Below are positions 17,801 to 40,328 of a stretch of 64,000 nucleotides of DNA, in pieces. Source of the DNA: Escherichia phage vB_EcoP_SU7. Made by a program: the position numbers and the translations under genes. Within the stretch, counting starts at the first letter, position 1; the number at the start of each line of letters is the position of its first letter. The stretch lies in sequence record NC_070980.1, one strand, 5' to 3'. Below the pieces are notes generated by a model. That model was not told the DNA's origin. It did no database searches and worked only from the letters and a program-made list of their open reading frames with translations.

Positions 17801-17807
17801 ACAAGAA

Positions 17808-18028: not shown

Positions 18029-18328
18029 CTAGATTAAATCATAATACTTAATAATATCAGAGAGTTTGAACTCTCGAATGTCGTTCTTGTCGTTGTCCCA
18101 AGCGGTCATTATCCAACAAGGTTTGCCCCCATTATGATAACGGGAAGAAGCAACTGAGGTTCGTAAAGGAATAACGGAGCGGTCTGCAATCTCGCCTCTC
18201 CAATTACGATAGCTAAAGCGAAGAACTTGTTTCGTAGATACTTGATCATGTGTGTTTTCCTTATTCATAGATTCAAAGACTTCCTTCTCTTCAGGAGTCT
18301 CTAGATTTTTTAAATTCGCGTCTTGCAT
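18029..18328 (-). CDS. hypothetical protein
   Basis: ORF on the replication strand; start placed at the internal ATG (MQDANL…); start uncertain. Confidence 0.4.
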   Translation of the reverse strand: MQDANLKNLETPEEKEVFESMNKENTHDQVSTKQVLRFSYRNWRGEIADRSVIPLRTSVASSRYHNGGKPCWIMTAWDNDKNDIREFKLSDIIKYYDLI

Positions 18329-18695
18329 CGTTTTCCTCTTTAGTCTTAATCTTATGGCAAGACTCTTTACATAAGACTTGAAAACCATCTTTCTCAACTA
18401 AAGCCCTCTCGATGATTTCATCCCAAGTAGCTTCATGGTCCACTGGAACAATAGGCTCGATGTGGTCGACAGCCACCTCTTTCAGAGGAGAGTCATTACC
18501 GCACATGGCACACTTGTAGTGCATTGCCAGCTTGCCAGTCTTAGGGTTGATTTTACGTTCTGTCTGAGCTTCTTTGAGAGCATCAAACATAGGCTTCCAC
18601 TTTCTAGTCAGAGAACGAATCCCTGACTTAATGAAGGAGTTATAACGTGCTTCAGTCCACTGACCAGAGCATCTTGTCTTCTCAGCTTTCGCCAT
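18291..18695 (-). CDS. HNH endonuclease
   Basis: CAMCGND…VDHIEPIV…CH, an HNH zinc-finger nuclease motif. Confidence 0.55.
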   Translation of the reverse strand: MAKAEKTRCSGQWTEARYNSFIKSGIRSLTRKWKPMFDALKEAQTERKINPKTGKLAMHYKCAMCGNDSPLKEVAVDHIEPIVPVDHEATWDEIIERALVEKDGFQVLCKESCHKIKTKEENDARREFKKSRDS

Positions 18696-18873
18696 AACCT
18701 ACATCCATATCAGCGTCTTCCCAAATGCGTTTATTGACTCGGTGTGATTCTTTATCAGCACGAGGGATACGACCTGTGCGACGATCAAATGCTTGGTGCT
18801 TAATCTTTTGATCTTTACGAGATTCACGAGTAGAGGAGTTTTCATCATACGAACGATAGTCAAATTTACCCAT
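18682..18873 (-). CDS. small basic hypothetical protein
   Basis: 63-aa Arg/Lys-rich ORF tightly packed between neighbours. Confidence 0.35.
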   Translation of the reverse strand: MGKFDYRSYDENSSTRESRKDQKIKHQAFDRRTGRIPRADKESHRVNKRIWEDADMDVGYGES

Positions 18874-18886
18874 TATAATATCCTTA

Positions 18887-19705
18887 TTACCAAGTTTTAT
18901 CTAACCATGACCAATCAAAGAGGTCACCTTCAGCTTGTCCAACGAAGAGCAATCGAGCATTTTCTAACATCTTAGCTTCTGCTTCTTCCTCGAACCTTTT
19001 ATAGTATTCCATTCGTATAATATGATAAAGAGTCCACTTATCGAATACCTTCTCAATAAGTTTGATTGCAGCCTTACTACCAATGCCTTTACGACGCATT
19101 ACTAGATTGCCACCCCACATCATTTCAACCTTCTCACCACATCCGGGAATGTTATCTGTGCTATCCCCGATCAGCATTTGGTAGAAGAAGTTCTGCCATG
19201 CTACTTCCTCTGATACATAATGAGGGGGTACTTCTTTCTGTCTCTCCCCGCAAGCCCAACGGTAATGCCATCCGGGGGTGATTAACAAATCTTTATCACG
19301 GGTGCAAATGATAGTGTTCTTATCACGTCTCTGTCTTTCAGCTAAGGCATCATCTGCCTCTCTCCCAAAAACTTCTACGTATTCGTAATTCTCTTTAATG
19401 TAGTCACTAACATTTTGCCAGTGGTGAGGTCTTTCTCCCGGTGGTCGATTAGCTTTATAGCCTTGCTGCTTAGCAATATCAAACCGAAAATTACCACCTT
19501 CGCTGAAGTAAAAGATTGTTTTCTCGCAACCAGACCTTGCAATGATTACATCTATTTTATGTTGAAGTCGTTCAATCAAGAATCCATAATCAACTGGAAC
19601 ACGACCTGTGTCTAGAAAAGGATGCTCTTGTGTAAGAGCACCGACTTCATATCGCAGAACATCTCCGTCCACAATTGCTACTTCAGGATAGATTACATCA
19701 GACAT
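18887..19705 (-). CDS. 5'-3' exonuclease / flap endonuclease (FEN, T5 D15 / T4 RNase H family)
   Basis: H3TH motif LIGDSTDNIPGCGEK…KGIGSKAA; ATG at 19705 lies 2 nt after the upstream gene stop. Confidence 0.8.
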   Translation of the reverse strand: MSDVIYPEVAIVDGDVLRYEVGALTQEHPFLDTGRVPVDYGFLIERLQHKIDVIIARSGCEKTIFYFSEGGNFRFDIAKQQGYKANRPPGERPHHWQNVSDYIKENYEYVEVFGREADDALAERQRRDKNTIICTRDKDLLITPGWHYRWACGERQKEVPPHYVSEEVAWQNFFYQMLIGDSTDNIPGCGEKVEMMWGGNLVMRRKGIGSKAAIKLIEKVFDKWTLYHIIRMEYYKRFEEEAEAKMLENARLLFVGQAEGDLFDWSWLDKTW

Positions 19706-20294
19706 AGAGACCTCTCCGTGTCTCTTCAATAATCCACTCTAAATCCTCAACTGCCTCTTCTACAGAACGGTCATTAAAGAGGAGGTAGGTTGGTAGGTTT
19801 GTTCCTTCAATATAAGAACGGGAGTCCCCTTCAAAGGAGCAGCCATCGCGGAGAACCTGAACCACTCGAACATGGAAGTGTTTCTCTAGTTCTTCAACTT
19901 CTGCTTTAAAACCACCATCAGAGAAGACGATAACATCATTCTGTGATGGGATATGTTGTTGGATACTGCTAACAGCAAGTTTACCCATGCAGGTCTCACC
20001 AAACATAGGCTTCAGGTAATTCTCGCTAGTTGCAATCATCAAGTCTCGAACTGACTTACCGCCCCATTCAGGACGGACAAGTTCTTTCCACTCACGGTCG
20101 TTGTACAGCTCCATGAACTCGTAAAGAGGTAGACCTAATGCAGCAGCAGCCACTCGATACATAGGCTCCTTAAAAGCCCTTACATGCGGCCTAAACTCAG
20201 TGTTACCAGTGGTCTTCTCTAACCAAGCACTGGCGATTGTATCTTTACCGCAACCCGGAGGTCCATTTAGAATTACTACTAATGGTTTACTCAT
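19698..20294 (-). CDS. P-loop kinase, deoxynucleoside monophosphate kinase-like
   Basis: Walker A NGPPGCGKDT; size and layout resemble phage dNMP kinases (recalled, not searched). Confidence 0.45.
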   Translation of the reverse strand: MSKPLVVILNGPPGCGKDTIASAWLEKTTGNTEFRPHVRAFKEPMYRVAAAALGLPLYEFMELYNDREWKELVRPEWGGKSVRDLMIATSENYLKPMFGETCMGKLAVSSIQQHIPSQNDVIVFSDGGFKAEVEELEKHFHVRVVQVLRDGCSFEGDSRSYIEGTNLPTYLLFNDRSVEEAVEDLEWIIEETRRGLYV

Positions 20295-20944
20295 TATTGA
20301 ATCATCCCTTGAAGATCTTCTTTATCAAAGTGCTTCTCTACTACCGCTTCATACAGATCACGATTCTCCGAATAACGGCGATAGAAGGTTCCGTGTGAAA
20401 TTCCCAGCTCTTGCTGGATGTGATCATGAGGTATACCGAGGAAGAGCATTGAGAACATACTTGCCATCTTGCGGTTTTCCATAATATCACTTAGGTCCTG
20501 GAAGAAGAAAAAGATTCTAGATTCCAAGAATGGGTCTCCAGTAGAATCATGCTTATCCATAGCAATCTCTAAAGGACTTTCCCATGAATTCATCTCGGGA
20601 GGTCTAAACATATCAGCCTCTGGAATAGAATAGATACGTCTGTCTCCAACTGTCTGACGATTAGAACGAATCGACCAGATGATATTCTTCACACGATAAG
20701 TCATGTGTTCAATATCTTTTTCATCGGTAAGCAATAGTTCTTCTTGCTTTGCAAATACAAAACGCCAAGAGTTCAGTAACACTTCCTGAGCAACATCCTC
20801 TGCTTCGTGATAATCTTTAATGTCGTACATAAAATACTTATGCACAACTTTCCAATTCTCTCGATAGAATTCATCGAAGGTTGGGTAGTACTTAATAGGT
20901 ATGCCATGAATACGATAGCGTGTGGGTGTTGTCTTTTTCTTCAT
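20294..20944 (-). CDS. phage-encoded sigma factor-like protein
   Basis: Region 2-like [13 protein letters not shown] and region 4-like [15 protein letters not shown]. Confidence 0.5.
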
Positions 20945-20968
20945 AAGTCATCCTTAACTTACTTTACA

Positions 20969-21193
20969 TTAAACTACACAGAATAAATACATTGCTGTTT
21001 CAGGGGAAGGTATGTGGTCACTAGGATATCTAACCCTAATCCACTCATCATCTTCTGCTACATAATAAGCCCAATAAGACCCATTTTCATTAATAAAGAA
21101 CTTGAAGGTACAACCAAAGATTTGGTTATTGTGTTCCCATACTGCATGAAACTGAGTAACACCTTCTGGTATTGTAAGTTCCGCTCTGATCAT
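20969..21193 (-). CDS. hypothetical protein
   Basis: 74-aa ORF in operon context. Confidence 0.4.
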   Translation of the reverse strand: MIRAELTIPEGVTQFHAVWEHNNQIFGCTFKFFINENGSYWAYYVAEDDEWIRVRYPSDHIPSPETAMYLFCVV

Positions 21194-21456
21194 TGTATTC
21201 CTCTCTCCTTTAGAGCTTTAAGCAAACCGTTGTGGTTAGCGGCACAGGTTGTATAAGTGTCCTGATACCACTCGAGTGTTGTTGCAAGTGCTACTCCCTG
21301 TCCACTCTGAAGTAAAGGGAGGTCTACATCACATTCAGCTTTTAGGTTTGTTGGTAAGGGCATTAGCTGCCTGCTGTTGTCGCTCGTTGAACAAGCCATC
21401 AAACTAGAAGCGAGAAAAATCACCAAACAACTCTTTTGCTTTTTCTTTGTAAGCAT
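21190..21456 (-). CDS. lipoprotein, candidate outer-membrane spanin
   Basis: Signal peptide with lipobox LMAC; short mature part with Pro and Cys; lies downstream of the candidate inner-membrane spanin. Confidence 0.4.
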   Translation of the reverse strand: MLTKKKQKSCLVIFLASSLMACSTSDNSRQLMPLPTNLKAECDVDLPLLQSGQGVALATTLEWYQDTYTTCAANHNGLLKALKERGIQ

Positions 21457-21790
21457 TTTCTGCACCCTCTTGAGTGCTGTGATAACCAAGCCAAATTACT
21501 TTGTTTTGATATCCGATGCGAGCACTCCATTTGTTAATATCCGACCTGTACCCTACACCTTTTATTCCAGTTAAAGAGTTCTTTTGAACTATTTTGTTGG
21601 CATTATTAAGGACAGGTGTTGCTCTTCTTAGATTGCTCCAAGAATTATTAGATTTGTCTAAATCTTTATGGTCTATTTGAAAATCAGGAATCTCTCCAGT
21701 TTTGATATACCAAGCAATTCTATGAGCTTTGTACTGTTTATATTGATAGGTAATCACTGTATAGCCATCTGTGGCTTTACAACCTGCCAC
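21404..21790 (-). CDS. HNH homing endonuclease with AP2-like DNA-binding domain
   Basis: IDHKDLDKSNNSWSNLR (HNH) and GIKGVGYRSDINKWSARIGY…GYHSTQEGAENAY (AP2-like). Confidence 0.6.
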   Translation of the reverse strand: MAGCKATDGYTVITYQYKQYKAHRIAWYIKTGEIPDFQIDHKDLDKSNNSWSNLRRATPVLNNANKIVQKNSLTGIKGVGYRSDINKWSARIGYQNKVIWLGYHSTQEGAENAYKEKAKELFGDFSRF

Positions 21791-21885
21791 CTTTCCAGCG
21801 AATCTTGAATTCCACTGAGCGCTCTTATCCTCAGAATGTTTCCAGTAGAGAAGACCAGAAACCTCATCGTAAGATAGATATTTAA

Positions 21886-22227
21886 CTAATTCTTTAATTT
21901 CAGTGCCTCCGCTGCTTGTTGCTGTCGTTCATTGAAAAGTCCTACATACTCATCACTAGCACACACATTGTAAAAAACTGGCTTAGTCTTTTCATAATGC
22001 ATCTCTTTGTAAATAGTTTCCGTGTTCTTCTTCCAGTTAGATAAACCAGTCAGAACTTTCTGAGCCACTTCATCAGCAGCCTTAGCTCTCTCAACCTCAA
22101 TCTCTTGCTGTTTCTTCTCATGGTCAAGAGCATTACTATTACTTCTGTATTGCTCAAACTTGACACCACCAAAGAAAATAATAGCTGTGAAAATAAGAAA
22201 GCCTATATTGTTTTGAAGCTTTTCCAT
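21886..22227 (-). CDS. type II membrane coiled-coil protein, candidate inner-membrane spanin
   Basis: N-terminal TM (IGFLIFTAIIFFGGV) then charged coiled coil; ATG at 22227. Confidence 0.4.
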   Translation of the reverse strand: MEKLQNNIGFLIFTAIIFFGGVKFEQYRSNSNALDHEKKQQEIEVERAKAADEVAQKVLTGLSNWKKNTETIYKEMHYEKTKPVFYNVCASDEYVGLFNERQQQAAEALKLKN

Positions 22228-22240
22228 TTTAACTCCAACG

Positions 22241-22264
22241 AAAAAAGCCACCCGAAGGTGGCTA
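22241..22264 (-). terminator. rho-independent terminator (minus strand)
   Basis: GCCACC-CGAA-GGTGGC stem with U-run on the minus-strand transcript, after the 22287 gene end. Confidence 0.5.
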
Positions 22265-22286
22265 AGCTATTACAAGGAGAGATTCA

Positions 22287-23027
22287 TTAGAAAGGGCTGT
22301 CATCTTCTTCAAAGGTAGACTGCGGCTCTTCGTTAATAGTAGGGATACTTGGAGTAGCATCTTTCTGTTCAATATCAGAAGCTTTAGTAACTTCACGACC
22401 AGCCAGAGGGATGTTCTTAGCATCATTAGCTTGGGTCAGAAGATTACGTTGGAATGGGAAGATTGCTTGATAAGCAGCCAAGTTAGCATCAGTCTCAGCA
22501 TATGGTTCGAAGAAGATCAACTCACTACGAGGGGCACCTACAGAATCACGATATTTGGTAGGGATTGGAGTGATACTCTTAATGGAGTTTTTCTTCTCAC
22601 CAGCTTTGTTTACATAGGAATTAACCAGAATGTTAACAGGCTGACCTAGCAGCATATCTTTAAACCAACCCAAATCACCTTTCAGTGCTTGAACACTTGG
22701 GTCGATCATTTTGATCAGATTCAGAATACCAGAGTTCTTAGCTCGTGGGTTTACGTCGAAAGTTTTAAACTGGCAAGCAGGACGAGGGTCCAGAGGTTTG
22801 CCTTCATTATCAGTCCCTGTTGCATCCACGCCAATCAGTTCAAAAGCCAAGTCCATACGGAAAGCTGGGTTCTTAGGAGTAACTGCTTTAGTCTTAGGGT
22901 CAATCCAAGGGTCACGATTGTGAACACCTAAACCTACAACACGAACAATACGTGCTTCGTACTCACCATCAGGGATTACATCGTAGTTGGATTTACGGGA
23001 TACAGACAGTTCAGGGATCATAGACAT
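22287..23027 (-). CDS. putative single-stranded DNA-binding protein
   Basis: 246 aa ending in an acidic tail …TFEEDDSPF, as in SSB and T7 gp2.5 C-termini; first gene after a 415-bp intergenic region. Confidence 0.35.
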   Translation of the reverse strand: MSMIPELSVSRKSNYDVIPDGEYEARIVRVVGLGVHNRDPWIDPKTKAVTPKNPAFRMDLAFELIGVDATGTDNEGKPLDPRPACQFKTFDVNPRAKNSGILNLIKMIDPSVQALKGDLGWFKDMLLGQPVNILVNSYVNKAGEKKNSIKSITPIPTKYRDSVGAPRSELIFFEPYAETDANLAAYQAIFPFQRNLLTQANDAKNIPLAGREVTKASDIEQKDATPSIPTINEEPQSTFEEDDSPF

Positions 23028-23083
23028 ATTAATATTTCCTTATATAAATTTAAGATTGTTGCTCTCTTTGAGCGGTTTGTATA

Positions 23084-23096
23084 CTATATACATTAC
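23084..23096 (-). promoter_or_regulatory. candidate promoter motif GTAATGTATATAG (minus strand)
   Basis: About 57 nt upstream of the 23027 start; same core as 13310. Confidence 0.35.
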
Positions 23097-23156
23097 ACTT
23101 ATACAGATAAGGTTCTATTATACTATAACCTTTTTGGTAGTAGATAATGACAAGTA

Positions 23157-23171
23157 GTAATGTATATATGG
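23157..23171 (+). promoter_or_regulatory. second copy of the TAATGTATATA motif, opposite orientation
   Basis: GTAATGTATATATGG on the plus strand inside the 23028-23442 intergenic region. Confidence 0.25.
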
Positions 23172-23442
23172 TATAGCTAGTAAAGCTATTGCAGGCTTGT
23201 ATATTGGGCAATCATTGTAACCCTTGCAAGTACCGAAGGGCAGGAGACACCTGCGAGATAAAAATAGAGAATTAAGGAAATCCTTGATTTAGGTTGTAGG
23301 GACTCCTAGGGACTTTGATTCTCTATTTAAAAGAATATTAATTACTTACTACCTAAATAATTAACTAACTTACTTAAACCAAACTCAAGAATAATAGATA
23401 AAAAGATTATTCCTAAGAAAGCTAAAAAGTAAAGGATATAAG

Positions 23443-23607
23443 TTACCATTCAAGTAAACCTTTAAAGTTAGTTTGTTCTACTATCCTCTGATAACGAAGA
23501 TTAGAATCAGCTTGTTTCTTTAACATCTCATTATATTTATCTCTGATAGGGTCTTTATAAACTACAGGTTCTTTAAATAACGAGATCTTGTTCTTTTCTT
23601 CTTTCAT
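23443..23607 (-). CDS. small hypothetical protein
   Basis: ORF 23443-23691 trimmed to an internal ATG to reduce overlap with the phosphatase gene; start uncertain. Confidence 0.35.
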   Translation of the reverse strand: MKEEKNKISLFKEPVVYKDPIRDKYNEMLKKQADSNLRYQRIVEQTNFKGLLEW

Positions 23608-24076
23608 CGAAAACCTTCCTAATCTCTTGCAGAGAAACAGCTTTATAATTAATTTGCTCCATTGATGTACAGAAATATCTCCAATCATCAATTACATGAT
23701 TATGGGTATGAGCATAAATATTAAACTTCCCTCTCATTTCATCAGTGTGAATAGGAATATGAGTTACCCAAAACTCTTTATATTTATAATCACCAGAGAT
23801 TCTACGGAAGACTTTCATCATATCAGGGAGAAGTTCTAACCTGTCATGGTTTCCTAAGACTAGATGCTTCTCTCCTTTTACTTCAGCGATGATATCAAGG
23901 GCATACTTTTCAAACACCCAATCACCGGTAAAGAAAGTTTTATCACGTTTAGTAACATGGTCAAACGCTGCTAAGATAGCTTTGTCGTGTTCTTCAATAC
24001 TACTAAACCTCTTCCTAAAGCTACAGATGTTACGATGGCCTAGGTGACCATCACCTGCAAAATAAACTTCAGCCAT
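23573..24076 (-). CDS. calcineurin-like metallophosphoesterase (Ser/Thr phosphatase-like)
   Basis: GDGHLGH…GDWV…GNHD…HTHNH metallophosphatase motifs. Confidence 0.7.
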   Translation of the reverse strand: MAEVYFAGDGHLGHRNICSFRKRFSSIEEHDKAILAAFDHVTKRDKTFFTGDWVFEKYALDIIAEVKGEKHLVLGNHDRLELLPDMMKVFRRISGDYKYKEFWVTHIPIHTDEMRGKFNIYAHTHNHVIDDWRYFCTSMEQINYKAVSLQEIRKVFDERRKEQDLVI

Positions 24077-24219
24077 TCTCGTATGTGTCCTCATAATATG
24101 AGTAGTTGAAGGATTCAGCTTTCGTTTCAGCCTCCTCCATATCGTCTGTTTCCAGAATCACTCTCCAGCCAGAACCGTTAGGATATTCAGCTCCCTCATC
24201 TAGCCAGACTTTGTATCGT

Positions 24220-24423
24220 TTAGATTGTGCAACCATCGCAGATGTAATCTCCGCTTAGAGACTCTTGCAAGAGCCGGGATTGTTCATCTGATACCAACTT
24301 GTCAACCTCTTCTTTCAGAGCCATAAGATCAACAAAGGTTAGTAGCTCGTGTCGGTCAGCAATCACTTGGTATTTGTAGTCATTAATATGTGGTGCGCTT
24401 TGTACGACGTAAATATTAGACAT
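24220..24423 (-). CDS. small hypothetical protein
   Basis: 67-aa ORF, stop-start coupled. Confidence 0.4.
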   Translation of the reverse strand: MSNIYVVQSAPHINDYKYQVIADRHELLTFVDLMALKEEVDKLVSDEQSRLLQESLSGDYICDGCTI

Positions 24424-24647
24424 TATAAGATCTCCCTTTGTTTAGCGTTAATGACTGACATTGCTGTGATTGGGTTGTTTGTTCCAAGATATTCCAGAAC
24501 AGGGACACCCTTAGTCGGTTTATCAGCCTCTGTGTAATTCTTAACCTTGCCACCAAGAACCGCTAGAGAAGCCTGAGCTTCCGCTTCATCATAGTGAATT
24601 CGGTCAACTGTTTTCTTTCCAATCCTATAAGTGTGAACGTAAATCAT
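24423..24647 (-). CDS. small hypothetical protein
   Basis: 74-aa ORF, coupled to neighbours. Confidence 0.4.
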   Translation of the reverse strand: MIYVHTYRIGKKTVDRIHYDEAEAQASLAVLGGKVKNYTEADKPTKGVPVLEYLGTNNPITAMSVINAKQREIL

Positions 24648-24850
24648 TTAACTTCCTCAATATCAACTAATTCAAAACTTCCTATTTCTTCAAGCTTAAT
24701 AATCTCTTTAACCTTCTCAACAGCTTTAATAGGGTTTTCTTCTTCTACAACTTTACACCCTGATACTTCAAGACTGCCTGTTCCACGAAGGTATAAATTC
24801 AACTTATAAACTACTTTGTAGTATTTCATCGTGCTCCCAATTTCTTTCAT
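24644..24850 (-). CDS. small hypothetical protein
   Basis: 68-aa ORF. Confidence 0.4.
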   Translation of the reverse strand: MKEIGSTMKYYKVVYKLNLYLRGTGSLEVSGCKVVEEENPIKAVEKVKEIIKLEEIGSFELVDIEEVK

Positions 24851-25019
24851 AATATCCAGAGTTGTAGTTTAGGGCGCATTTCTCGGCCTCTTCTATGTCG
24901 TCTGTGTTTAGGATATTAACCCAACCACCAACTTCATCAAAACCCTCTTCTACCTCATTGAACCACACGCTGTATTTCTTCATCTTGATAAGACCCTTCC
25001 CCAATCCTTGATGTAACAT
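24804..25019 (-). CDS. small acidic hypothetical protein
   Basis: 71-aa ORF. Confidence 0.35.
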   Translation of the reverse strand: MLHQGLGKGLIKMKKYSVWFNEVEEGFDEVGGWVNILNTDDIEEAEKCALNYNSGYYERNWEHDEILQSSL

Positions 25020-25155
25020 CGACCATCAACCCACTTGGTCTCTGATTTAAACTCTTGAGAGATTCTTGTTTCACAGTCTTCTTTACTGTAATCACCAAGA
25101 GCATCCATCACCCAAAGAAACAGAGCAATTACAATAGACCAGATTAGAAACTTCT

Positions 25156-25548
25156 TCATCGTATCACCAGAGGCTCTTCAGAGTACACAGGAGAGGTTAT
25201 TTCTACCGGAGGTGCTGCTCTAAGGTCATTAAGCCTTACGCCCTTCAGCATACCATCTAGGTGGTCCATTTTAGGGATACCTACAGGGAAGTCATCAATC
25301 CAAACATCCACAAAGAAACCCAAGCTCTGAGTGACGGAATCCTTCTGAACACCATTGCAAAAGATAACAGGAATATCTAGACTTGCTGCATCTGCTAGAA
25401 GCTCCTCATTTGAATACCCATTAGGTTGAGCAAAACGATAGGTGACAATACGTACATCATGTCCACGAGATTTCATAAGACCTACAATGTGGGTCCACAT
25501 CTCTTTGTCCACTGTAAAAGTGTCATCATAATCTAAACCAATATTCAT
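25156..25548 (-). CDS. HAD-superfamily phosphatase-like protein
   Basis: N-terminal IGLDYDDTFT resembles HAD motif I (DxDxT). Confidence 0.4.
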   Translation of the reverse strand: MNIGLDYDDTFTVDKEMWTHIVGLMKSRGHDVRIVTYRFAQPNGYSNEELLADAASLDIPVIFCNGVQKDSVTQSLGFFVDVWIDDFPVGIPKMDHLDGMLKGVRLNDLRAAPPVEITSPVYSEEPLVIR

Positions 25549-25565
25549 ATTAGCCTCTTAGACAA

Positions 25566-25590
25566 GAAAAGCCACCCGAAGGTAGCTTAT
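25566..25590 (-). terminator. rho-independent terminator (minus strand)
   Basis: Hairpin plus U-run on the minus transcript right after the 25587 gene end. Confidence 0.45.
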
Positions 25591-25832
25591 TTATTCTGTG
25601 TTTCCAGTTCGCTGATACGAACTTTCAAACCGTTAATCTCAGCCTGAGCAGCTTCTAGTTTAATTAGAGCTTCTTCAGCGTCAGCTTCTGTTTGAAGAAC
25701 CGCAGTGGTTAGTTCGTATAAAGCTTGGCGGAGAGAATCTTTTCCCATAGCATGAATCTGTGCAACAAAGAATTGCTTACCTTCCGTGGTTTCCAAAGTC
25801 TCTTTTAATTCTTTAGATGTTAAAGTCATCAT
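25587..25832 (-). CDS. small coiled-coil protein
   Basis: 81 aa, heptad-like (…LEAAQAEINGLKVRISELETQNK). Confidence 0.45.
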   Translation of the reverse strand: MMTLTSKELKETLETTEGKQFFVAQIHAMGKDSLRQALYELTTAVLQTEADAEEALIKLEAAQAEINGLKVRISELETQNK

Positions 25833-26212
25833 TACTCCCTTTCATAAATTTTAAGAACTGTACCGCCATCTGCTTCAATCTGAGCAACTACTTCATCGCG
25901 CTCTTCATCAGAATAAACCAGTTGGTTGTGAAATTTGCCTGTACTATCTTGGAAATACACATTCCATTTTGGAGCAGGTTTACGAATCAAATCCATCATT
26001 GATCTCTCTCCTCTCGTTCAACCCATGTATGGAAAAGCTCCCCATACACTTTGGCATCATCAAAACGTCCTTCTTCCTGTGCGAGTTTTTGTTGCTTCAA
26101 GCACCATTCAGAACTTTTTACTTCTTCCACTTCCTTGTCTCCTTAAAAAAGAACTAATCAATAAGACTAGTTCATTTCATAATACGATTCAGCTCTTCCA
26201 CTGAACTAATCA

Positions 26213-26524
26213 CTACTTCTCCACCACAAAGAGGTTAACTTCAATGAAAGTTTCGTATTGTGTTGACTCCTGCTTACGGGTGTAGTAGAAATGACGACCT
26301 TCTAATGCACCTCCGTACTGAGTGGCACATCTTTTAACCATCTCTTTTATCACATCTACAACTGATTCGCCTTTCCACGGACGTAACCCCTGAGTTGGGA
26401 CTTTTGCTGTACAGGTTACTTGTGTGTAACCTACATCTTGTAGAGATATCTCAAGAATCAGCTTTGCCCAAGCATCAAAATTAAGCTTGGGGTTATATTT
26501 AACTTCAGTTTTGATATCAATCAT
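26213..26524 (-). CDS. hypothetical protein
   Basis: ATG overlaps the polymerase stop (TAATGA). Confidence 0.5.
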   Translation of the reverse strand: MIDIKTEVKYNPKLNFDAWAKLILEISLQDVGYTQVTCTAKVPTQGLRPWKGESVVDVIKEMVKRCATQYGGALEGRHFYYTRKQESTQYETFIEVNLFVVEK

Positions 26525-26676
26525 TAGTGAGTATGATTCCAGTTTAATCCAATCTTACAATCTGATGCAAGAGGACATTCCATCTTGAGGTATTCCCCTG
26601 CTTTACGAACACATTCTTCAGTGAGGGTACGAAGTTTGTTAACATCATCACGATGTACAGTGAACTGACCTTCATC
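26524..26676 (-). CDS. DNA polymerase (family A), exon 2 (C-terminal 50 codons)
   Basis: Encodes DEGQFTVHRDD…KIGLNWNHTH, matching the extreme C-terminus of T7-type Pol A (HDE…G.NW..H). Confidence 0.7.
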   Translation of the reverse strand, partial: DEGQFTVHRDDVNKLRTLTEECVRKAGEYLKMECPLASDCKIGLNWNHTH

Positions 26677-27283
26677 CATTCAGTTATTCCCAAATTACTT
26701 CGGGTGTCGGACTATATCATAACAGCATAGCTAATTTGCTGTTGTTGGCGCTTCGAGGGTTTCCCTGTTAACCCCCTACTCCCTTAGGATAGTCTCTACA
26801 CTTTCCACTTCCGAATCCATCTACAACCGATTCCGAAGCTCACACCAAACTTCTCTGCAAGATGTACACCAGAGCATTCTGTTTCTAGCCAATAAAGCCT
26901 TGCAGCTTCTTGTCTATCTCCATTTCTTCCAGTGTTTGATTCTATTGCATGTTCTGAACCTTCAAGCATTTCTAAGTGCTCAAGATTGGAACAAGCCCTA
27001 TTCTTGCATTTGTGATTTATTTCATAACCATCAGGAATAGAACCAAAAGATTCTTCCCAAACATATCTATGATACATGACCCATTTGCCATCTATTACTT
27101 TTCTGAAATAACCATCTTTGTTAAGTTTGTGTGAGATAGGGATGATACACCCTGTTTCGGTTGTTTCCAAAACAAGAGTTTTCTTAGCCATATCATCTCC
27201 TAATAGCTTAGCTCGGTATTGCCCCCAACTTAATGGTAGGGTTTCACCGAGTTCACCAACTTTTACATGCACAATGAAAGTTT
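26677..27283 (-). mobile_element. group I self-splicing intron with HNH homing endonuclease ORF, inserted in DNA polymerase motif C
   Basis: P1: exon end CAUGCAU pairs with intron GUGCAUG (U.G at splice site); R-like AGAGACUA (26790-26797) and S-like GAUAUAGUCC (26709-26718) form P7; P9 hairpin with GUAA loop; terminal G at 26677; splicing restores …VIDMH|DEGQ…. Confidence 0.7.
26796..27191 (-). CDS. intron-encoded HNH endonuclease
   Basis: YEINHKCKNRACSNLEHLE HNH motif; ATG at 27191 preceded by AGGAG (track start 27272 is GTG inside P1). Confidence 0.65.
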   Translation of the reverse strand: MAKKTLVLETTETGCIIPISHKLNKDGYFRKVIDGKWVMYHRYVWEESFGSIPDGYEINHKCKNRACSNLEHLEMLEGSEHAIESNTGRNGDRQEAARLYWLETECSGVHLAEKFGVSFGIGCRWIRKWKV

Positions 27284-28978
27284 ATGCATGTCAATAACCT
27301 TCGCACAACGAACACCATCCCGCTCAATCCATTTATTGAGGAATAGCATTGCATACTTCATAACAATCGCCCCAGCGCTCTGTAAGAGTGTATTTAAGGC
27401 TTTATGGACCATAACCTTTCCAGTTGCATCTCTTCTCATTGTAATACGACGTCCATCCACACCGTAGATATATCCACTTTGCGCTTTCTCTGTCATACGT
27501 TCAATAAGGATTGCAATACAAGGGTTCTCTGCTAAGAATCTTGCTCTCATGATAGCCCCTTCGTCAGAGCCACCACCTACAATACTTCCTAACTTAGCGT
27601 CACCTGCCCCATAGTTAAAGGCATAGATAAACGTTTTAGCATTATCACGAGTAGGAAGGCCAGCAAGTTTTTGGTTATGTGAGTGAATATCTCCTTCTAA
27701 AAGAATATCTCTATACATAACAGCAGAAGCTAGACCACGTTCAGCTTCTCGTTTCTTAGCCGGGTTGTTTTCTCGCTCTGCTTCAGCGAGCATCTCACGA
27801 CATTCTTTAATAAGGTAGTGAGCTAGCATCCTCAGCTCAAGACCAGAGCCATCGTAACCTAAGAAGATTTCACGACCAGCAGGAACATAGAACTTATAGG
27901 CACCTACAGGTTTGTCTTTCTTGCCCGGTTTTCCCACTTCGTAGATAATGTTAGTACCCTTTCGTACGTAACACCCATCAGGGATATGGTTGGTAATGAT
28001 GAAAGGATGGTTATGACTATCGTCTGAGGAATAGTCAGATTGAAAAAGACTGCGGCACTCGTGACCAAACAAACCGCGAGAAGGAATATTAACAACAATG
28101 CGATGTTTAAAACGAAATGTCGGAGTAGCGCAGCTATTAGCTTCGGCGGACAACTTACCATCTTTACGTTCCTTGTCGATAAGCCCGCTAATCAAACCTA
28201 GCCTGTGAGCCGCTACAACGCGTCTCTTAAGCAAACTTCCTACACCCCCTAGCTCACCCCCAAGCCCCTCTTCAAGAGTCTCCTCAAGGTTTGTAGGGGC
28301 TGTGGGCCACTTGTTTGATGTAGCCAAAGCTTTTTTGATTTCATCAAAGGTTACAGGTTTCTTCCTATTCGGATTAAGACCTAAACCACTGACGTAGGCT
28401 TTCATGTAGTTGACAGTGTGATAACGGAAATGTTTATCCAAAAATCTTCGGATATCAGCATCTATCATCTCCGCTGTCTGTTTCTCTTTAGCATTACCTC
28501 GAATCCAAGCAGAATACCATGCAGAGTATGTACCATACTTCTTCATAGCTCTACGGATTTCAAATGTATTCCAAGGTTTCTTAGAATAATTCCACTCTGG
28601 AGGTATGAAGCCTTCGTCCATCAAGGCTTCTTTGATACGTGCATCTTTCGATGGGTCGAAGTCTACATACTCAACGCAAGTAAACGCCCCACCGATATCT
28701 TCTCTTTTAAGACCAACTCTGTCACAATAGAGCTGAGGCCACTTCTGTAAAGCACCTGACTTCTTAAAAGGTTTCGAATAAGTTGAACCATCCACCCGCA
28801 TTTTGGGGAGGAGAGGAATCAGTTCTTTATCAATATTGACAATAATCTCTTTGAGAAGGTGAACAAACCACCGAGCGTTTCTTCTGTTGAAGTTGACTCC
28901 ATGCTTCGCTTGTTTTGAGATTATATCAGCGACTGTCATCTCCGTTATGAAAGGTAACTTATCAGGGTTATCCATCAC
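27284..28978 (-). CDS. DNA polymerase (family A, T7-like), exon 1, polymerase domain
   Basis: Motif A GYDGSGLELRMLAH; motif B RDNAKTFIYAFNYGAGDAKLG; …LNTLLQSAGA…; ORF stops six codons past the splice point. Confidence 0.85.
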
Positions 28979-29915: not shown

Positions 29916-30233
29916 TCAACTTGAGCTTAAAGCTCCTTTGCGACCGCCTGCTGATTTTCCAGCACGATCTCCACTTTTGCCGCCGTTCGAGCGATTTCGA
30001 GAGACTGATTCAACACGTAAGTTACTTGACGCATTAGAACCTCCCGACTTGATTGATCGTTTGTGTCCAACATCTTTACCTCGGACAGCAGCTTTTCCAT
30101 CGCGCTTTTCAACGATGCGACGTGCACGGTGGCGCTGAGCATCTCCGCTCTTGCTCCCAATTCCCGTTTCACCGCGCTTGATCGCAGTCCTTCTTTCTTG
30201 AGCATAGTCTCTTTTTCCTACATGATCTGCCAT
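29916..30233 (-). CDS. highly basic low-complexity protein
   Basis: 105 aa, Arg/Lys/Gly/Ser-rich; codon choice fits this frame better than two overlapping alternatives. Confidence 0.4.
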   Translation of the reverse strand: MADHVGKRDYAQERRTAIKRGETGIGSKSGDAQRHRARRIVEKRDGKAAVRGKDVGHKRSIKSGGSNASSNLRVESVSRNRSNGGKSGDRAGKSAGGRKGALSSS

Positions 30234-30562
30234 TAGATTTCTCCTGATTCTCTTTGGTTAAAGGTGTGGATGGCGTGGCAATTAGCACACAATATCCTGC
30301 ACTTCCTCATCTCTTCTTTTATTTGAGATAAAGATCTGGTGTGCCCTTTGGAGAGTTCGAATGACTTAGTTAATGGATTTAAATGATCAAACTGAAGAGC
30401 AGATGCGTGGCCTTTAAAACCACATTCAGAGCACCCGTAGAATGTTTTAACTCTACGAATAAAAGCTAGTTGCCTAAACCTTCTTCTCTCATTGTCTGCT
30501 TTTCTCTTATCTCTATTTCCTGGGTCGGCCCATCTACACGAGTCATTGCAAAACCTCTGCAT
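30233..30562 (-). CDS. HNH endonuclease
   Basis: CSECGFKGHASALQFDHLNP…CANCHAIH. Confidence 0.55.
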   Translation of the reverse strand: MQRFCNDSCRWADPGNRDKRKADNERRRFRQLAFIRRVKTFYGCSECGFKGHASALQFDHLNPLTKSFELSKGHTRSLSQIKEEMRKCRILCANCHAIHTFNQRESGEI

Positions 30563-31536: not shown

Positions 31537-31718
31537 TTACGCTCTCCAATTTCTTCGTAATGACACTCAGTAGTTAAGCAATCTTTACAGATTGCTGTAT
31601 AAACCCTGACGTTAGTAAATCGTTTGTTCTTCCCTTTGGTTGGAGAGCCTTTAGCAAGCTCTCTGATAACCTTGTTACTTAAATGAAGGTTTGTTCCTTC
31701 ACATCTAGAGCACTTCAT
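31533..31718 (-). CDS. small zinc-ribbon protein
   Basis: CSRCEG…CKDCLTTEC cysteine pairs. Confidence 0.4.
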   Translation of the reverse strand: MKCSRCEGTNLHLSNKVIRELAKGSPTKGKNKRFTNVRVYTAICKDCLTTECHYEEIGERK

Positions 31719-32034
31719 GGTTCATGTCTTTATGAATCCTGTAAACAGCTGTCGCCATACAAGCAACAGCCTCGTTGTGTGGGAGATGCATTCCTGTAGA
31801 ACCATCCCAATCTTTGAACTCAGCGTCAAAGACTCCGGTAGGCTCTGGATACAGAGCTTGCAGCTCCACTAGATCATTAGCAACTTGTTGCCATTTATCA
31901 TCAGACCAGATAGGGTCATCCAACCAGTAATACAAATAGGAATGGATGATCAATTGCCTTCTGTGCCGATTTATTACTTCAGCGGGACTTATCTCACTTC
32001 CATTTGAAGTCCTAAATGTATTACTGTCAATCAT
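31705..32034 (-). CDS. stand-alone protein resembling the N-terminal Ia domain of NAD-dependent DNA ligase
   Basis: RQLIIHSYLYYWLDDPIWSDDKWQQVANDLVELQALYPE resembles LigA domain Ia (YY..D.P.ISD..YD.L…L..L..P). Confidence 0.4.
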   Translation of the reverse strand: MIDSNTFRTSNGSEISPAEVINRHRRQLIIHSYLYYWLDDPIWSDDKWQQVANDLVELQALYPEPTGVFDAEFKDWDGSTGMHLPHNEAVACMATAVYRIHKDMNHEVL

Positions 32035-32576: not shown

Positions 32577-33224
32577 TTAACTCTCCAAAGTTTTCTTCAG
32601 GGCTGCCCACGAGATTGGGTAGAGTTTAGCCATCTCTTCGTCTAGAGATTGGGCAAACACTCGAACTTCATATTGAGCGTGAGATGAGAGTCGCTGACGA
32701 CACAACTCAAACCAGCCATACAAAGAACCAGTCCAGTACCAAGTAGTTATCATACCTTGAGGCAAAACAAATCTAGCCTGTTCCGGAGCAATAAATTTAA
32801 TCAATTCATCATAACTAGCAAGAGATGCTTCATACGCAGAGTTAAACAAAGCCAAAGCTTTTGCCTCCTCTTCCCCTTCAAGAAGCGCTCCAGAACCAGA
32901 GTGTAAATCATCTGGACGAGAGAAAATTTCTTTAGGTATGAAAATATCCACTGCTCCGTCTTTGTATCTACGACTCATCTCATTCCAAGAGAATCCAACT
33001 TGATGTTTTTGTAGCTGTCGTGCGATTGCTATCGGGGCTTCACACCGGAAGCTTGCTTGTGGGTGACGAAAAGGGCTTACATGGCGTTCTCGAGCTAAGA
33101 AGTTAATAAGCCGAGTATCATTTTCTTTCAGCTCCTCCCTTTCTACTCCCATAGTTACACGAGCGGCATTTACCACAGTAAGGTCTGATCCGAAGTTATC
33201 AATTAGTGAAGCTTTGATTGTCAT
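32577..33224 (-). CDS. thyX: flavin-dependent thymidylate synthase (ThyX family), divergent motif
   Basis: Aligns by eye to ThyX across AARV, SPF.H, F..APIA.ARQ, SWNEMSRRY, SHAQ.E, but the canonical RHR is KHQ here. Confidence 0.65.
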   Translation of the reverse strand: MTIKASLIDNFGSDLTVVNAARVTMGVEREELKENDTRLINFLARERHVSPFRHPQASFRCEAPIAIARQLQKHQVGFSWNEMSRRYKDGAVDIFIPKEIFSRPDDLHSGSGALLEGEEEAKALALFNSAYEASLASYDELIKFIAPEQARFVLPQGMITTWYWTGSLYGWFELCRQRLSSHAQYEVRVFAQSLDEEMAKLYPISWAALKKTLES

Positions 33225-33690
33225 TTATATAAATCTCCTTGACTTTATTATATTCCCTAGAGGCCTCTTCTACGGTTGAGAAGAGTCCTATATGCTTAGA
33301 TTTAAATACAGCCCGATAAGCAATAGAACCACTTTTCCTTTTATGAACAGTTACTCCAATTACTCCAGTGGATAAGTTATTACTCTGTGCTACCCTATTA
33401 AGACTGTTTCCTGCTTTAGTAGTCCCTCTAAGATTCTCTCTTTTGTTGTTCAACCTGTTGCGGTCCAAGTGGTCTACCTCTTCAGGAAGCGAACCAGTGT
33501 CCCACCAGTAAGCAAGACGGTGAGCGTAATACTTAACACCTTTATAGATGATTCTCAAATACCCATTGGTATTTACAGAACCAGCTATAGATCCTTTGTG
33601 TCCTTTTCCATAAGTTTTAACCCATCGGAAATCTCCAGTCAAAGGGTCGTAATCAAGAGCTTCTTTTATTGATAGGTCAATGTCATTCAT
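33199..33690 (-). CDS. HNH homing endonuclease with AP2-like domain
   Basis: VDHLDRNRLNNKRENLR (HNH) and GVIGVTVHKRKSGSIAYRAVF (AP2-like); directly upstream of thyX. Confidence 0.65.
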   Translation of the reverse strand: MNDIDLSIKEALDYDPLTGDFRWVKTYGKGHKGSIAGSVNTNGYLRIIYKGVKYYAHRLAYWWDTGSLPEEVDHLDRNRLNNKRENLRGTTKAGNSLNRVAQSNNLSTGVIGVTVHKRKSGSIAYRAVFKSKHIGLFSTVEEASREYNKVKEIYINDNQSFTN

Positions 33691-33705: not shown

Positions 33706-33981
33706 TTACTTTTTGTTCAGAGCTGTATCCAAAAAGGCTTTCAGGTTTGCTTCAGTTTGCATACCGGACAAGCTGTAATGAGCACCACTGTTCTTATCAG
33801 GGATGACAAAGGCTGGGATACTGCGAACACCATATTCAATGGCTCGCTCTCGACCATCACCTTCGGTGATATTTACTTCTTCAACTTCTACGTTGTAATC
33901 ATCTACAACCTTCTTAAACACAGGAGCCATAGCTGCACAAGGTGCACATGAATTACTATAAAACTTAATCACTTTACTCAT
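33706..33981 (-). CDS. thioredoxin
   Basis: …KFYSNSCAPCAAMAPVF… CxxC active site; ATG at 33981. Confidence 0.6.
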   Translation of the reverse strand: MSKVIKFYSNSCAPCAAMAPVFKKVVDDYNVEVEEVNITEGDGRERAIEYGVRSIPAFVIPDKNSGAHYSLSGMQTEANLKAFLDTALNKK

Positions 33982-35990: not shown

Positions 35991-36524
35991 TTATACGCCT
36001 TTAGAAGCAACTACACCATTACTACCGTTATAACGACCCTTCACTGCATAGGAATCATCACCAGCGTGAGAGTGTTCAAACATAACCATTTGACCAACAC
36101 GCATCCCAGCACGAACTCGTAAGCTGTGATTGTGGGTAACGTTATGGAACTCAAAGGTTAGCTTACTGCTATTAAACCCTGCATCAGCCCAACCAGCATG
36201 TAAGTGGTTCAAACCACAACGAGCCATAGAGGAGCGAAGTACAAACAGACTTGAGATGTTATCTGGAAGGTTAAACTCTTCCATTGAGTGAGCTAAGAAG
36301 AACTGTCCCGGAGTGATGACAATGCCATCTTCAGGGATTTTCACTTCTTTCCACTTGAGGTTTTCTTTAGCATCAATGTCAACAATACCATCAGCCTGTT
36401 CTTCAACAAGGATAGTATCACCAATACGGATATCCACGCTAGCAGCGTTAACATATTTATGCTCCGCATCTAAAAAGCCATTATCAATAACGCTGTGTAA
36501 TTCTTGAGAACCTAAAAGACTCAT
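35991..36524 (-). CDS. dCTP deaminase / dUTPase-superfamily enzyme
   Basis: NAASVDIRIGD… and C-terminal …GMRVGQMVMFE fit the dCTP deaminase family. Confidence 0.6.
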   Translation of the reverse strand: MSLLGSQELHSVIDNGFLDAEHKYVNAASVDIRIGDTILVEEQADGIVDIDAKENLKWKEVKIPEDGIVITPGQFFLAHSMEEFNLPDNISSLFVLRSSMARCGLNHLHAGWADAGFNSSKLTFEFHNVTHNHSLRVRAGMRVGQMVMFEHSHAGDDSYAVKGRYNGSNGVVASKGV

Positions 36525-38008
36525 GAGTTTCTGTTTCCTTGTACAGATGATGCCAAATTATTAATCATATTACGAGCTGTTTCACGAGATAGTGTAACAC
36601 CTGCTAGGTTGTTGTGAAGCTCACCAGATAGCTCACGAGCTGCTGCTCGTAGTTCTGCACCAAGTGCAGTGTCAGAGTGAGCTAGACCATTACGACGACC
36701 AACAGGTCGAGGAGCTTCGTTAGCGTCATTAGCTAATGATGCAAAACCAATATGAGCAGCTTCACGAGCCGCTATAGCTGATACTCGATCTTCTGTAGGG
36801 GTTGGCAAATCACCAACTTCTACACGTTCAATATCACTAGCACGTAGACCCTGAACAACAGAGCTTACTGTTTCCCATGAACGACGAGAACGCTGCAAAT
36901 CATCCATTGACGGAGATGGAATAGGACGAGCAGTTCCTCCTTGGACATGCCATGTACGAGTATCCATTCCAGAAGAGTGTGCACTACCAAAACTACCAGT
37001 GAAAGTATCACGAGGTCTTTCATGAGGTTGTACGTTATACCCTACAACACCCCCTCGAACAGTTCGAGAAGTTTCTTCATTAAAAGCTTGAAGATCTCGT
37101 CTGTTAGTTCCCGGAGTCCAAGGTCGTGTAATTGCTTCAGCACCTATAGTGGTTAATCCACTAGACCATTCTGTCTGTAGGTTAACTTCCTCGTCCAGAT
37201 AACTACGACCCCTTTCCTGAGGAATGTTTAATGTAGTTTCCATCATCTTCAGGGTATAATGACGACGCTGATTCTGATATAAATTTACACCAGCCATAGG
37301 CCCAACTAAATCACTGATCAGATGAACTTCTGGTTCACCAAAAGCTCCCATTGCAAGGTGCATGTACTCAGTAGAACTGCTGTAAACTGCAACTGTTGCT
37401 TCAGGCCACTTTTTGTGGACATACTTCATGTCACGACTTGTCACCACAGGGATATCATTAGTATATGCCATTGCAAACATACCTTCGTTCGACACATACA
37501 TATCATCGAGAGTCATAAACCCTTGACAAATCATAGGGAAGCGACCGCTCAGAGTATCCATATCCAGAGGGAGGTTAATCATCATCTGAATCTTCACTTC
37601 GTCAATCTCCACTTCCAAAATCTCTTGGAAAGTGAAAAGTGCTTCAGCGTAGGTTGTTCCACTGATAGGCTGAACTAGTCGAGATGTAACTTGAAGCCCC
37701 TTACTCTCTGTCCAAGACAAGAAGTTGTCAAGGAACAGTGCAGCATTACTTACGTTAGCAGGGCTGTTTTCCTGACGAGTGTTCCAACGGAATCCTCCTT
37801 GAACTAGGAAGATATCAACATCATTCGGAGTTCGATTTTGGAAGAACGTATCACGGATAGCACCACCTGCAATGACAGGATAGATACCATCAGGGACTAC
37901 GTTATCTCTGATCAGATTGCGAATCAGATCAAGCCCTACGCTGAGGGCTTCTCCTTCTTGAAGGTTTAATTCAGACAATGGAATCTTAATCATTTCTACA
38001 TTTTCCAA
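36521..38008 (-). CDS. nucleotidyltransferase-domain protein (tRNA-NT / poly(A) polymerase-like head) with long C-terminal extension
   Basis: [24 protein letters not shown] matches the GG.[VI]RD…D.D head motif; C-terminal ~250 aa Ala/Arg/Ser-rich. Confidence 0.4.
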
Positions 38009-38544
38009 TTTAGAGATGGGGGATTCTTATAATCAAATCCAGCCATTTGACAAAGACACATGTAAACTTTAACTGTCAAGTTAACGTCTTGCTCACAATA
38101 GGTGAACATGTCTTCAGTGAATGCGTCCCATGCCTCCTCCTGTTCTCCATAATCTCCTTTCAGCTCCCCAAGAAACTCGCCCCATTGTTTGAGGCCGTGA
38201 CCACGAGGGCCATGTCTAGGGTCGCCTTTGGGGTATTCTGGACTATCACCAATACGGTCAGGCTTGAGATATCTACTCAGGCACAAAGTATCGAAGACGT
38301 TAAAGCGAAAAGGTATCACATGAGAATAAAACTTAAACAAAGCAGGAAGGTCAAAATCAATAATATTGTGACCTATTACTACATCAGCTTCTTTCAGTTT
38401 GTGTAGTGCTTCTTCAATTTGGTGAGGGCGATACCCCCACCGCTCTCCAGATAATACATCAAATATCCAGATACACCAGACATTCTGAATACCATCATAG
38501 AGATTATCCCCCTCGATATCAAACGCATACAGTTTCTTTACCAC
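37996..38544 (-). CDS. stand-alone 3'-5' proofreading exonuclease (T7 DNA polymerase exo-domain-like)
   Basis: Exo [12 protein letters not shown], Exo [16 protein letters not shown], Exo [12 protein letters not shown]; 182 aa; encoded ~9 kb from the polymerase domain. Confidence 0.75.
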
Positions 38545-40328
38545 GGACGTGCCTCCCCTTCTTGTGCAAGTAAGGAAGCTGCATCCTCTCCATTGGTAAC
38601 GGTAAAAGGATGCTCTTCATCAACTTCATGATCTTCTCGTTCTACAAGACGACCTGTTTCATTGATGTATTTGGTATAGCAAACCCCTGTCTGTCCATAG
38701 TTACGCTCTTTGAGCAGTCGTATGATTGACAAGTTTTTACCTAACCCATCCGCTTGTTTGTTACGTTCAAAACCAATAATACACTGACACCAGCGCATCA
38801 ATGAACGTGAACCAGTAAACTGTACTTCTTTAACCTGACCACCTTCTTCGTGGGGTGCACCACCTGCCGGAGCGTTCAAGTGAGATAATACAAAAGCAGT
38901 GAAGTCTAATTCCTTACACATACCAGCAAGCTCTGAAGCAATCTTGCTGATTTCTGTGTTTACCTCAGATGGGGTTAAGTGAGATACCAATGCAGTGATG
39001 TTATCAAGAATGATAAATTTACACTGATTCTCAACTACCCAAAAGCGAATACACTGCTTAATGTCTTCCCACTCGTTCTGCCCAAAGTTGTCATACAAGA
39101 AAAACTTATCAGCGTATCGAAGTGCTTCATCTCGTAGCTGGCTTTCTTCGTACTCAACATCTGGTCGGTGGAATGGAATAGATGCAGATTTACCTGCAAT
39201 GTTCTTAACAGACATGCCTACCTTCTCTTCCAAGAAGAAGCCACCACCATTAAAACCATGCTCAAGGCAAAGCCATGCTACTAGTTCGTGTGCGATTAAG
39301 GTTTTACCTGAACCAACACCACCGCCGATTGCAACCATCTCTCCCCAACGAATACCAAAGGTCATGTCGTTAAGAGTTTTCCACGGATAAGGAATACCCC
39401 ATTCCGCTTTCTTCAGAGCATCTTCGAGGCAATCAAAAACTGTAACAGCTCCAGCAGGAGATTCCCGCTTAGCTGAATATTTCAGATTGTTGAAAAGCTC
39501 TTGACCTCTCCCTGCAAGTAACATGTCGTTTGCATCTTTGATTTCCTTTTCTTGTCCGTTATAAGTGAACGTACCTTTTGGAATCCTTGCAAACTTAACA
39601 TGCGGGTACAGAGAACGACCCTTAGTTAAAGCAATCTCACCTGCATCATCATTGTCCATGCAGAGTACAATCTCCTCGAAACCATTAATAAAATCACGGT
39701 TTCTTGATAATACAGAAGAGATTGAACCTGCACCGAACGGAAGAGAGACGCAAGCAGGTTTGATGTTAGTTGCGTTTGTAAACGCGGTAAGTACGTGGAA
39801 CCCAGACATACAAGAGAGAGGGTCTTCAAAGATGAAGAGTTTCTTGTTGTATACGTCACCACGTTGTGCTTGAGCCATACCAAACAAGTCGGCTTCTTTC
39901 ACATTACCTACATAATAGAACTTCTTGCTGTCTAGAAGTTTTACTTCATATCCAACAATGTTCCCATCACGTTCACGAGGGAAGAAGTAGCTGTCAGGAG
40001 TTTGACCATCTGTTTGGCTTAAACCGATACGGCATCCATAACGTTCAGATACAGCTTTAGGAATTAAGCGACGAGTCAACTCTCCCTGAGGAAGCTCTAA
40101 GCAATCGTCTAAGACTTCTCGGAGTTCTTCAGGGGACAGCTCTTTCTTTTCATTAGGAGTGGGCGTCGTTCCTTTCTCGAAGATTTCATACGCACCACAT
40201 CTGTTACATGAACCCCACTCCTCACCGGACTCTTCATTTCGGAAGAGAATCATGTGATTGCGGGTCTTATCACGACCATGAGAGATACACTCTTTACAGC
40301 CCGTGTCTCCCAAAATGATCTTTGACAT
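38538..40328 (-). CDS. DNA primase-helicase (T7 gp4-like)
   Basis: N-terminal zinc ribbon; [15 protein letters not shown]; Walker [10 protein letters not shown]; Walker B FIILDNI. Confidence 0.85.

Follow-up and report, generated by a model that had tools for sequence, protein, structure and literature searches.

The replicase of Escherichia phage vB_EcoP_SU7 (NC_070980.1) is very probably a T7-type family A DNA polymerase that is encoded in pieces and rebuilt from a non-covalently joined exonuclease and polymerase; the layout of the genes is conserved in the lineage. We analyzed a window of 64,000 nucleotides (nt) of this genome. A prediction made from the DNA letters had described a 182-amino-acid (aa) open reading frame (ORF) with T7-type Exo I, II and III motifs, lying about 9 kb from a polymerase-domain gene with no exonuclease part. 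Both genes are as described: the ORF itself, its Pfam match, its alignment with T7 and its conserved residues identify the exonuclease, and its stop codon is 9.0 kb from the start of the polymerase gene, which lies downstream. The split layout is already known from GenBank annotations, from PHROGs and from at least two papers (PMC9965538; PMC3517423).

In the mechanism we propose, the exonuclease would be made just behind the primase/helicase gene, probably in a coupled manner. A 614-aa polymerase, corresponding to approximately residues 206–704 of T7 gp5, would come from the downstream gene, at a distance of 9 kb, once a group I intron has left motif C. The two proteins would most likely associate non-covalently into a T7 gp5-like enzyme, and in proofreading the 3′ end of the primer would shuttle between its two active sites, polymerase and exonuclease. 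Processivity may come from the phage thioredoxin. The coordinates of these features are collected in Table 1.

The exonuclease gene and its product

The exonuclease ORF opens with GTG, which has GGAGG 7 nt upstream, and closes with TAG. Its start and the stop of the primase/helicase gene share 7 nt (GTGGTAA), an overlap suggesting that translation of the exonuclease is probably coupled to that of the primase/helicase gene. The product matches the Pfam family DNA_pol_A_exo1 (PF01612) marginally, with further matches to RNase_H_2 and DNApol_Exo. It belongs to phrog_38876 (2.6e-67) and phrog_403 (3.1e-37), each named “DNA polymerase exonuclease subunit,” and phrog_17, “DNA polymerase,” also matches (7e-21). 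Chains of T7 gp5 were the sole sequence matches among solved structures (residues 4–142, E = 4e-8), and pairwise BLASTP aligned residues 9–157 with residues 5–178 of T7 gp5. From an alignment of 25 homologues, AlphaFold2 gave a model with a pLDDT of 91.7 and a pTM of 0.88. When this model was compared with the PDB using Foldseek, T7 gp5 chains took all of ranks 1–27, the best at E = 1.2e-9 and TMq 0.73. DEDD nucleases of other kinds entered the list from E = 5e-5, with a Rhodococcus diDNase and RNase T among the weaker matches. Judged by sequence and predicted fold, the protein is a proofreading domain of the T7 Pol A type and not of the DnaQ type.

The motifs that define the DEDDy class (Exo I, DxE; Exo II, Nx(3-4)D; Exo III, YxxxD) are all found in the protein, Exo III reading YCEQD. 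The catalytic residues D9, E11, N60, D65, Y149 and D153 show no variation across the 25 homologues, whose identity falls as low as 35%. By these sequence features, the ORF is a complete DEDDy 3′-5′ exonuclease domain equivalent to approximately residues 1–209 of T7 gp5, and the 182-aa protein would be expected to proofread.

The polymerase gene and its intron

The polymerase ORF opens at a GTG at position 28978; the ATG at 28975 is the start that agrees with the 1845-nt gene of relatives. DNA_pol_A is the only Pfam match on this ORF (residues 363–565), and Pfam gave no match to an exonuclease domain. Residue 12 of the polymerase pairs with T7 residue 217, immediately beyond the exonuclease domain. 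The spliced polymerase is 614 aa long and matches T7 gp5 at residues 289–354, 405–484 and 491–696.

Residues 53–134 of the polymerase (28574..28819) align with T7 gp5 283–362, the end of the thioredoxin-binding loop. This match fits the published hypothesis that the phage thioredoxin serves the polymerase as a processivity factor (PMC7881722), and the product of the thioredoxin gene is a possible partner of this kind. A separate observation concerns residues ~133–244 (28245..28579, minus strand), which form an additional stretch of ~90–110 aa relative to T7 gp5 (354–405) and to P0086, a fused relative (281–304). The split polymerase of Pseudomonas phage UFV-P2 (546 aa) appears to be without this insertion. 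We considered whether the ~100-aa segment could be a docking module of split enzymes; the idea is unsupported, given that the UFV-P2 enzyme is just 546 aa.

The original prediction also held that the polymerase message must be spliced, and this is supported by an insert of 607 nt that falls within motif C. Its limits are given exactly by alignment with the uninterrupted polymerase genes of phages IME267 and Bas86. The boundaries read ...ATGCAT/AAAC...GAATG/GATGAA (slashes mark the junctions), so that the final base of exon 1 is U and that of the intron is G. Removal of the insert restores the frame exactly and yields an ORF equal to the uninterrupted genes of IME267 and Bas86. In the 3′ part of the insert, a sub-threshold match to Rfam Intron_gpI (RF00028; E = 1.4e-4 in a 751-nt search) takes in the conserved GAUAUAGUC core and its flanking helices. 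The insert was found in nine phage records (ECBP2 at 97% identity) and is precisely absent from at least 17. From its boundaries and core, the intron is predicted to be self-splicing.

The ORF inside the intron, predicted to encode a homing endonuclease, carries this name in the annotation of ECBP2. For the intron-bearing relatives ECBP2, PE006 and pEC-N1203-2Af.1, GenBank gives two “DNA polymerase” coding sequences (CDSs) and a homing endonuclease, with no intron. Group I introns with HNH genes have been described at polymerase site 881 in the T7-like phages PhiI and W31 (PMC3428280). Those introns (I-TslI) have in common with the SU7 one an insertion point that separates H881 from D882 in motif C (E. 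coli Pol I numbering), as well as the intron class and the endonuclease family, but they belong to another phage lineage.

Conservation of the split and alternative readings

The closest fused relative is P0086, a protein of 611 aa. Residues 4–164 of the exonuclease align with P0086 2–148 (41% identity), residues 12–132 of the polymerase with P0086 164–281 (38%), and residues 245–614 of the polymerase with P0086 304–611 (43%). Against T7 gp5, the exonuclease ends at approximately residue 209 and the polymerase starts at approximately residue 206. This collinearity with both fused proteins places the cut within the inter-domain linker. On the alignments, the two products are one T7-like Pol A cut at the linker (T7 gp5 206–209), with nothing lost or duplicated. 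Outside the homologous domains there remain ~18 aa at the C terminus of the exonuclease and ~11 aa at the N terminus of the polymerase, which together amount to the natural linker of T7 gp5 and P0086. The resemblance to T7 gene 5 extends to the fold and catalytic residues of both halves, to the primase/helicase preceding the polymerase N terminus and to a segment like the thioredoxin-binding loop. The T7 enzyme, however, is a single chain of 704 aa that uses host thioredoxin, whereas SU7 has two chains, a thioredoxin gene of its own and the insertion at polymerase residues 133–244. The split proteins of UFV-P2 and of Aeromonas phage LAh_9, and the fused P0086, are all ~40%–50% identical to the phage proteins.

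The region matches 98 phage records, all of them phiEco32-like (Gordonclarkvirinae) coliphages, with IME267 97% and Bas86 91% identical. For the exonuclease protein, identity is 100% with phage EK010 and 80% with Bas89 and SU10. Bas86 names it “DNA polymerase exonuclease subunit,” and IME267 names it “DNA polymerase.” The original prediction had proposed comparing related phage genomes, and exonuclease and polymerase proved to be separate CDSs in Bas86, IME267, UFV-P2 and LAh_9. Corresponding pairs in phiEco32-like (Kuravirus-like) phages are YF01 gp70 and gp49, Bas86_0067 and Bas86_0044, and IME267 gp069 and gp048. These relatives have the exonuclease behind the primase/helicase and the exonuclease-less polymerase ~9 kb downstream; they differ by strain-level mosaicism only, and many lack the polymerase intron and the extra HNH genes of SU7. 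Separate 5′-3′ and 3′-5′ exonuclease subunits have been called “common to all group members” of the phiEco32-like phages, YF01 gp27 being the equivalent of the separately encoded 5′-3′ exonuclease, and phages 7-11, Privateer, Vp_R1 and BUCT695 have them as well (PMC9965538).

The same organization is found further afield. Every LUZ24-group phage has polymerase and proofreading exonuclease as separate genes, the polymerase gene of LUZ24 holds an intron, as does that of SU7, and phiEco32 is cited as similarly organized (PMC3517423). In LUZ24-like Pseudomonas phages (LUZ24, PaP3, tf and UFV-P2), the primase/helicase is followed immediately by a stand-alone T7-type exonuclease, and downstream of it comes a Pol A that lacks the exonuclease part; their exonuclease shares 37% and their polymerase 41% identity with the SU7 proteins. 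UFV-P2 names its parts “DNA polymerase part I” and “part II.” Its parts are ~2.1 kb apart, separated by ten small ORFs, in contrast to the 9.0 kb of nucleotide-metabolism genes in SU7, and its polymerase has 546 aa against 614 aa. LAh_9 (Lahexavirus; 42% identity for the exonuclease, 51% for the polymerase) has the exonuclease, then dCTP deaminase, PhoH, Dps, ThyX and other genes, and then the polymerase after a gap of 9.8 kb. It differs in its 98-kb genome, in the anaerobic ribonucleotide reductase genes among its cargo and in the missing nucleotidyltransferase. The primase/helicase adjoins the exonuclease in Bas86, IME267 and UFV-P2, and one small ORF lies between them in LAh_9. The order primase/helicase, exonuclease, cargo genes, polymerase is kept in UFV-P2 and LAh_9. 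In the loci compared (UFV-P2 5977..10231; LAh_9 13992..26179), the cargo thus ranges from small ORFs in UFV-P2 to 9–10 kb of nucleotide-metabolism genes in LAh_9 and SU7, and the gap between the two genes looks like a place where cargo genes accumulate.

Phages of the phiEco32-like, LUZ24-like and Lahexavirus groups have the split as a rule. In an exhaustive search with a profile of the exonuclease alignment, the family came to 4,445 members. Of its 150 best representatives, 44 do not exceed 260 aa and show no polymerase match, a stand-alone share that is an upper estimate, as some short metagenome representatives are possibly truncated gene calls. To call the layout unusual for a T7-like Pol A, as had been done, was an overstatement.

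That upper estimate is one of several points that weigh against a replicase rebuilt from two chains. The Pfam score of the exonuclease, 24.2 bits, only marginally passes the curated cut-off of 23.6. The Rfam score of the intron, 26.3 bits, does not reach the gathering score of 50, so that its group I class is assigned from the core motif, the bases at the splice sites and the place of insertion, and partly from context. Finally, no biochemical work on a split exonuclease/polymerase pair of the T7 type emerged from a targeted search of the literature, and the physical association of the two proteins is something we infer.

This last point leaves some space for the idea that the exonuclease is a free DEDD nuclease, employed, for instance, to break down host DNA, to process ends or in recombination or repair, and that the polymerase works without proofreading. 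The genes are 9 kb apart, and small free DEDD nucleases do exist, two of them (the Rhodococcus diDNase and RNase T) being among the weaker Foldseek matches. We nevertheless consider this improbable. The exonuclease is specifically of the Pol A/T7 type rather than of the Orn, RNase T or DnaQ type, and its collinearity with the exonuclease domain of fused relatives is exact as far as the linker. Each lineage examined has both an exonuclease and an exonuclease-less polymerase in constant gene order, and a replicative polymerase that does not proofread would be unexpected for a 77-kb genome. A further proposal holds that the split is functional and more than a neutral fission: with the exonuclease coupled in translation to the primase/helicase and the polymerase at the distant end of a block of nucleotide-metabolism genes, the position or timing of the genes would set the exonuclease-to-polymerase ratio and hence replication fidelity, or the exonuclease would dock on the helicase instead of the polymerase. 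We regard this, too, as a rather slim prospect. If it were true, the growth of the cargo from 2 kb in LUZ24-like phages to 9–10 kb in SU7 and LAh_9 would mark a favored insertion site.

Two other readings, which apart from the split intein were raised by the original prediction as possible refutations, can be given almost no credence. According to one, the halves are joined through an unrecognized intron, a frameshift or trans-splicing by a split intein, and the mature enzyme is one chain. Cyanobacterial DnaE is a split-intein polymerase with distant genes and offers a precedent, and the SU7 polymerase gene does hold one intron. The exonuclease ORF, however, ends in TAG, the nucleotidyltransferase starts 2 nt further on, and ~24 ORFs separate exonuclease from polymerase. 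Its 36 close homologues measure 105–208 aa, too short to include a polymerase domain; all but one 105-aa fragment keep the stand-alone length of 163–208 aa. The ~18 and ~11 spare residues correspond to the native linker and exclude a split intein, whose halves of ~100 and ~35 aa would not fit. The count of spare residues, the stop codon and the size of the homologues together exclude a hidden fusion, and we saw no sign of a frameshift joining the two genes. According to the other reading, the exonuclease is DnaQ/epsilon-like, unrelated to the exonuclease domains of Pol A and independently recruited. Exo I–III motifs are indeed common to all DEDD nucleases and do not discriminate alone. Exo III does differ between classes: YxxxD marks the DEDDy, polymerase type, and HxxxxD the DnaQ/Pol III epsilon type (DEDDh). 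The SU7 protein has YxxxD and not HxxxxD, Pfam gave no RNase_T/DnaQ family match, and both its sequence matches in the PDB and its predicted fold point to T7 gp5. In addition, 93 of the best 150 profile matches are long proteins that bear the exonuclease domain N-terminal to a Pol A domain matching the phage polymerase.

The split may be seen as a curiosity of phiEco32-like and LUZ24-like phages that has already been recorded, and to which little is added here. If the replicase is rebuilt from two chains as we favor, it raises the question of how proofreading works in a T7-type polymerase whose exonuclease domain is provided in trans, a subject on which the literature search turned up no study. 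The phiEco32-like group, which includes culturable members of the BASEL collection, would be a convenient system for this question. The cut, fixed at the linker of T7 gp5 (206–209), is a possible guide for work on in-trans proofreading or for engineered split polymerases.

Neighboring genes

Table 1. Positions of the replicase genes, their motifs and selected neighbors in the 64,000-nt window
Feature	Position	Strand	Length	Remarks
Primase/helicase gene	38538..40328	−	596 aa	Pfam DnaB_C and Toprim_2; directly upstream of exonuclease
Exonuclease gene	37996..38544	−	182 aa	Predicted stand-alone 3′-5′ proofreading exonuclease, T7 gp5 exonuclease-domain type
Exo I motif, D9-I-E11	38512..38520	−		T7 D5 and E7 by alignment
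Exo II motif, H59-N60-x4-D65	38350..38370	−		T7 H59, N60 and D65 by alignment
Exo III motif, Y149-x3-D153	38086..38100	−		T7 Y170 and D174 by BLASTP register and MAFFT alignment
Nucleotidyltransferase	36521..37993	−	490 aa	phrog_12715; ATG at 37993, 2 nt past exonuclease stop
Phage thioredoxin	33706..33981	−		Pfam Thioredoxin, 3e-13
DNA polymerase exon 1	27284..28975	−	564 codons from ATG 28975	Polymerase domain only; last residue is His of motif C
Group I intron (putative)	26677..27283	−	607 nt	Separates H from DE in polymerase motif C
Intron-encoded HNH homing endonuclease ORF	26796..27272	−	158 aa	Pfam HNH_3, 2.4e-12
DNA polymerase exon 2	26524..26676	−	50 codons + stop	Opens with DE of motif C; Pfam DNA_pol_A positions 335–380
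5′-3′ exonuclease	18887..19729	−		phrog_107 “exonuclease,” 5.5e-62; weak Pfam 5_3_exonuc_N match

The interval between exonuclease and polymerase was said to hold about a dozen genes. It contains roughly twice that number of ORFs, and Bas86 annotates 22 there. The named members of the set stand, as Pfam confirms dCTP deaminase, a ferritin/Dps-like protein, thioredoxin, ThyX and PhoH.

A gene assigned to the 5′-3′ exonuclease by its PHROG match lies beyond the polymerase (Table 1) and, on this assignment, is a third Pol I-type activity with a gene of its own. It follows an ORF of the phage RNA polymerase sigma factor family (20294..20944, minus strand; phrog_1740, 9e-43), consistent with a phiEco32-type transcription strategy, and a deoxynucleoside monophosphate kinase gene (19698..20294) that comes between the two.

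The nucleotidyltransferase resembles Pol-beta-type nucleotidyltransferases (phrog_1614) only at residues 35–79 and has no Pfam match; its C-terminal half appears to be of low complexity, as judged by eye. It was considered as a conserved partner of the exonuclease and rejected, being absent behind the exonuclease gene in UFV-P2 and LAh_9.

HNH-type ORFs also occur outside the intron. A free-standing HNH_3 ORF of 163 aa (33199..33690, minus strand) sits between the genes for thioredoxin and ThyX, with a 26-nt overlap at the thyX start. Its presence in Bas86 and absence from IME267 suggest that it is probably a mobile homing endonuclease outside introns. The third such ORF (30233..30562, minus strand, 109 aa; Pfam HNH, 21.9 bits) follows PhoH on its downstream side; in this position Bas86 has an annotated HNH endonuclease and IME267 has none. 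Another 109-aa protein in the interval (31705..32034, minus strand) consists of the NAD+-binding domain Ia of LigA-type ligases alone (Pfam Nlig-Ia, 120 bits), and is named “DNA ligase” in relatives and PHROGs although it has no adenylation, OB or other ligase domains.

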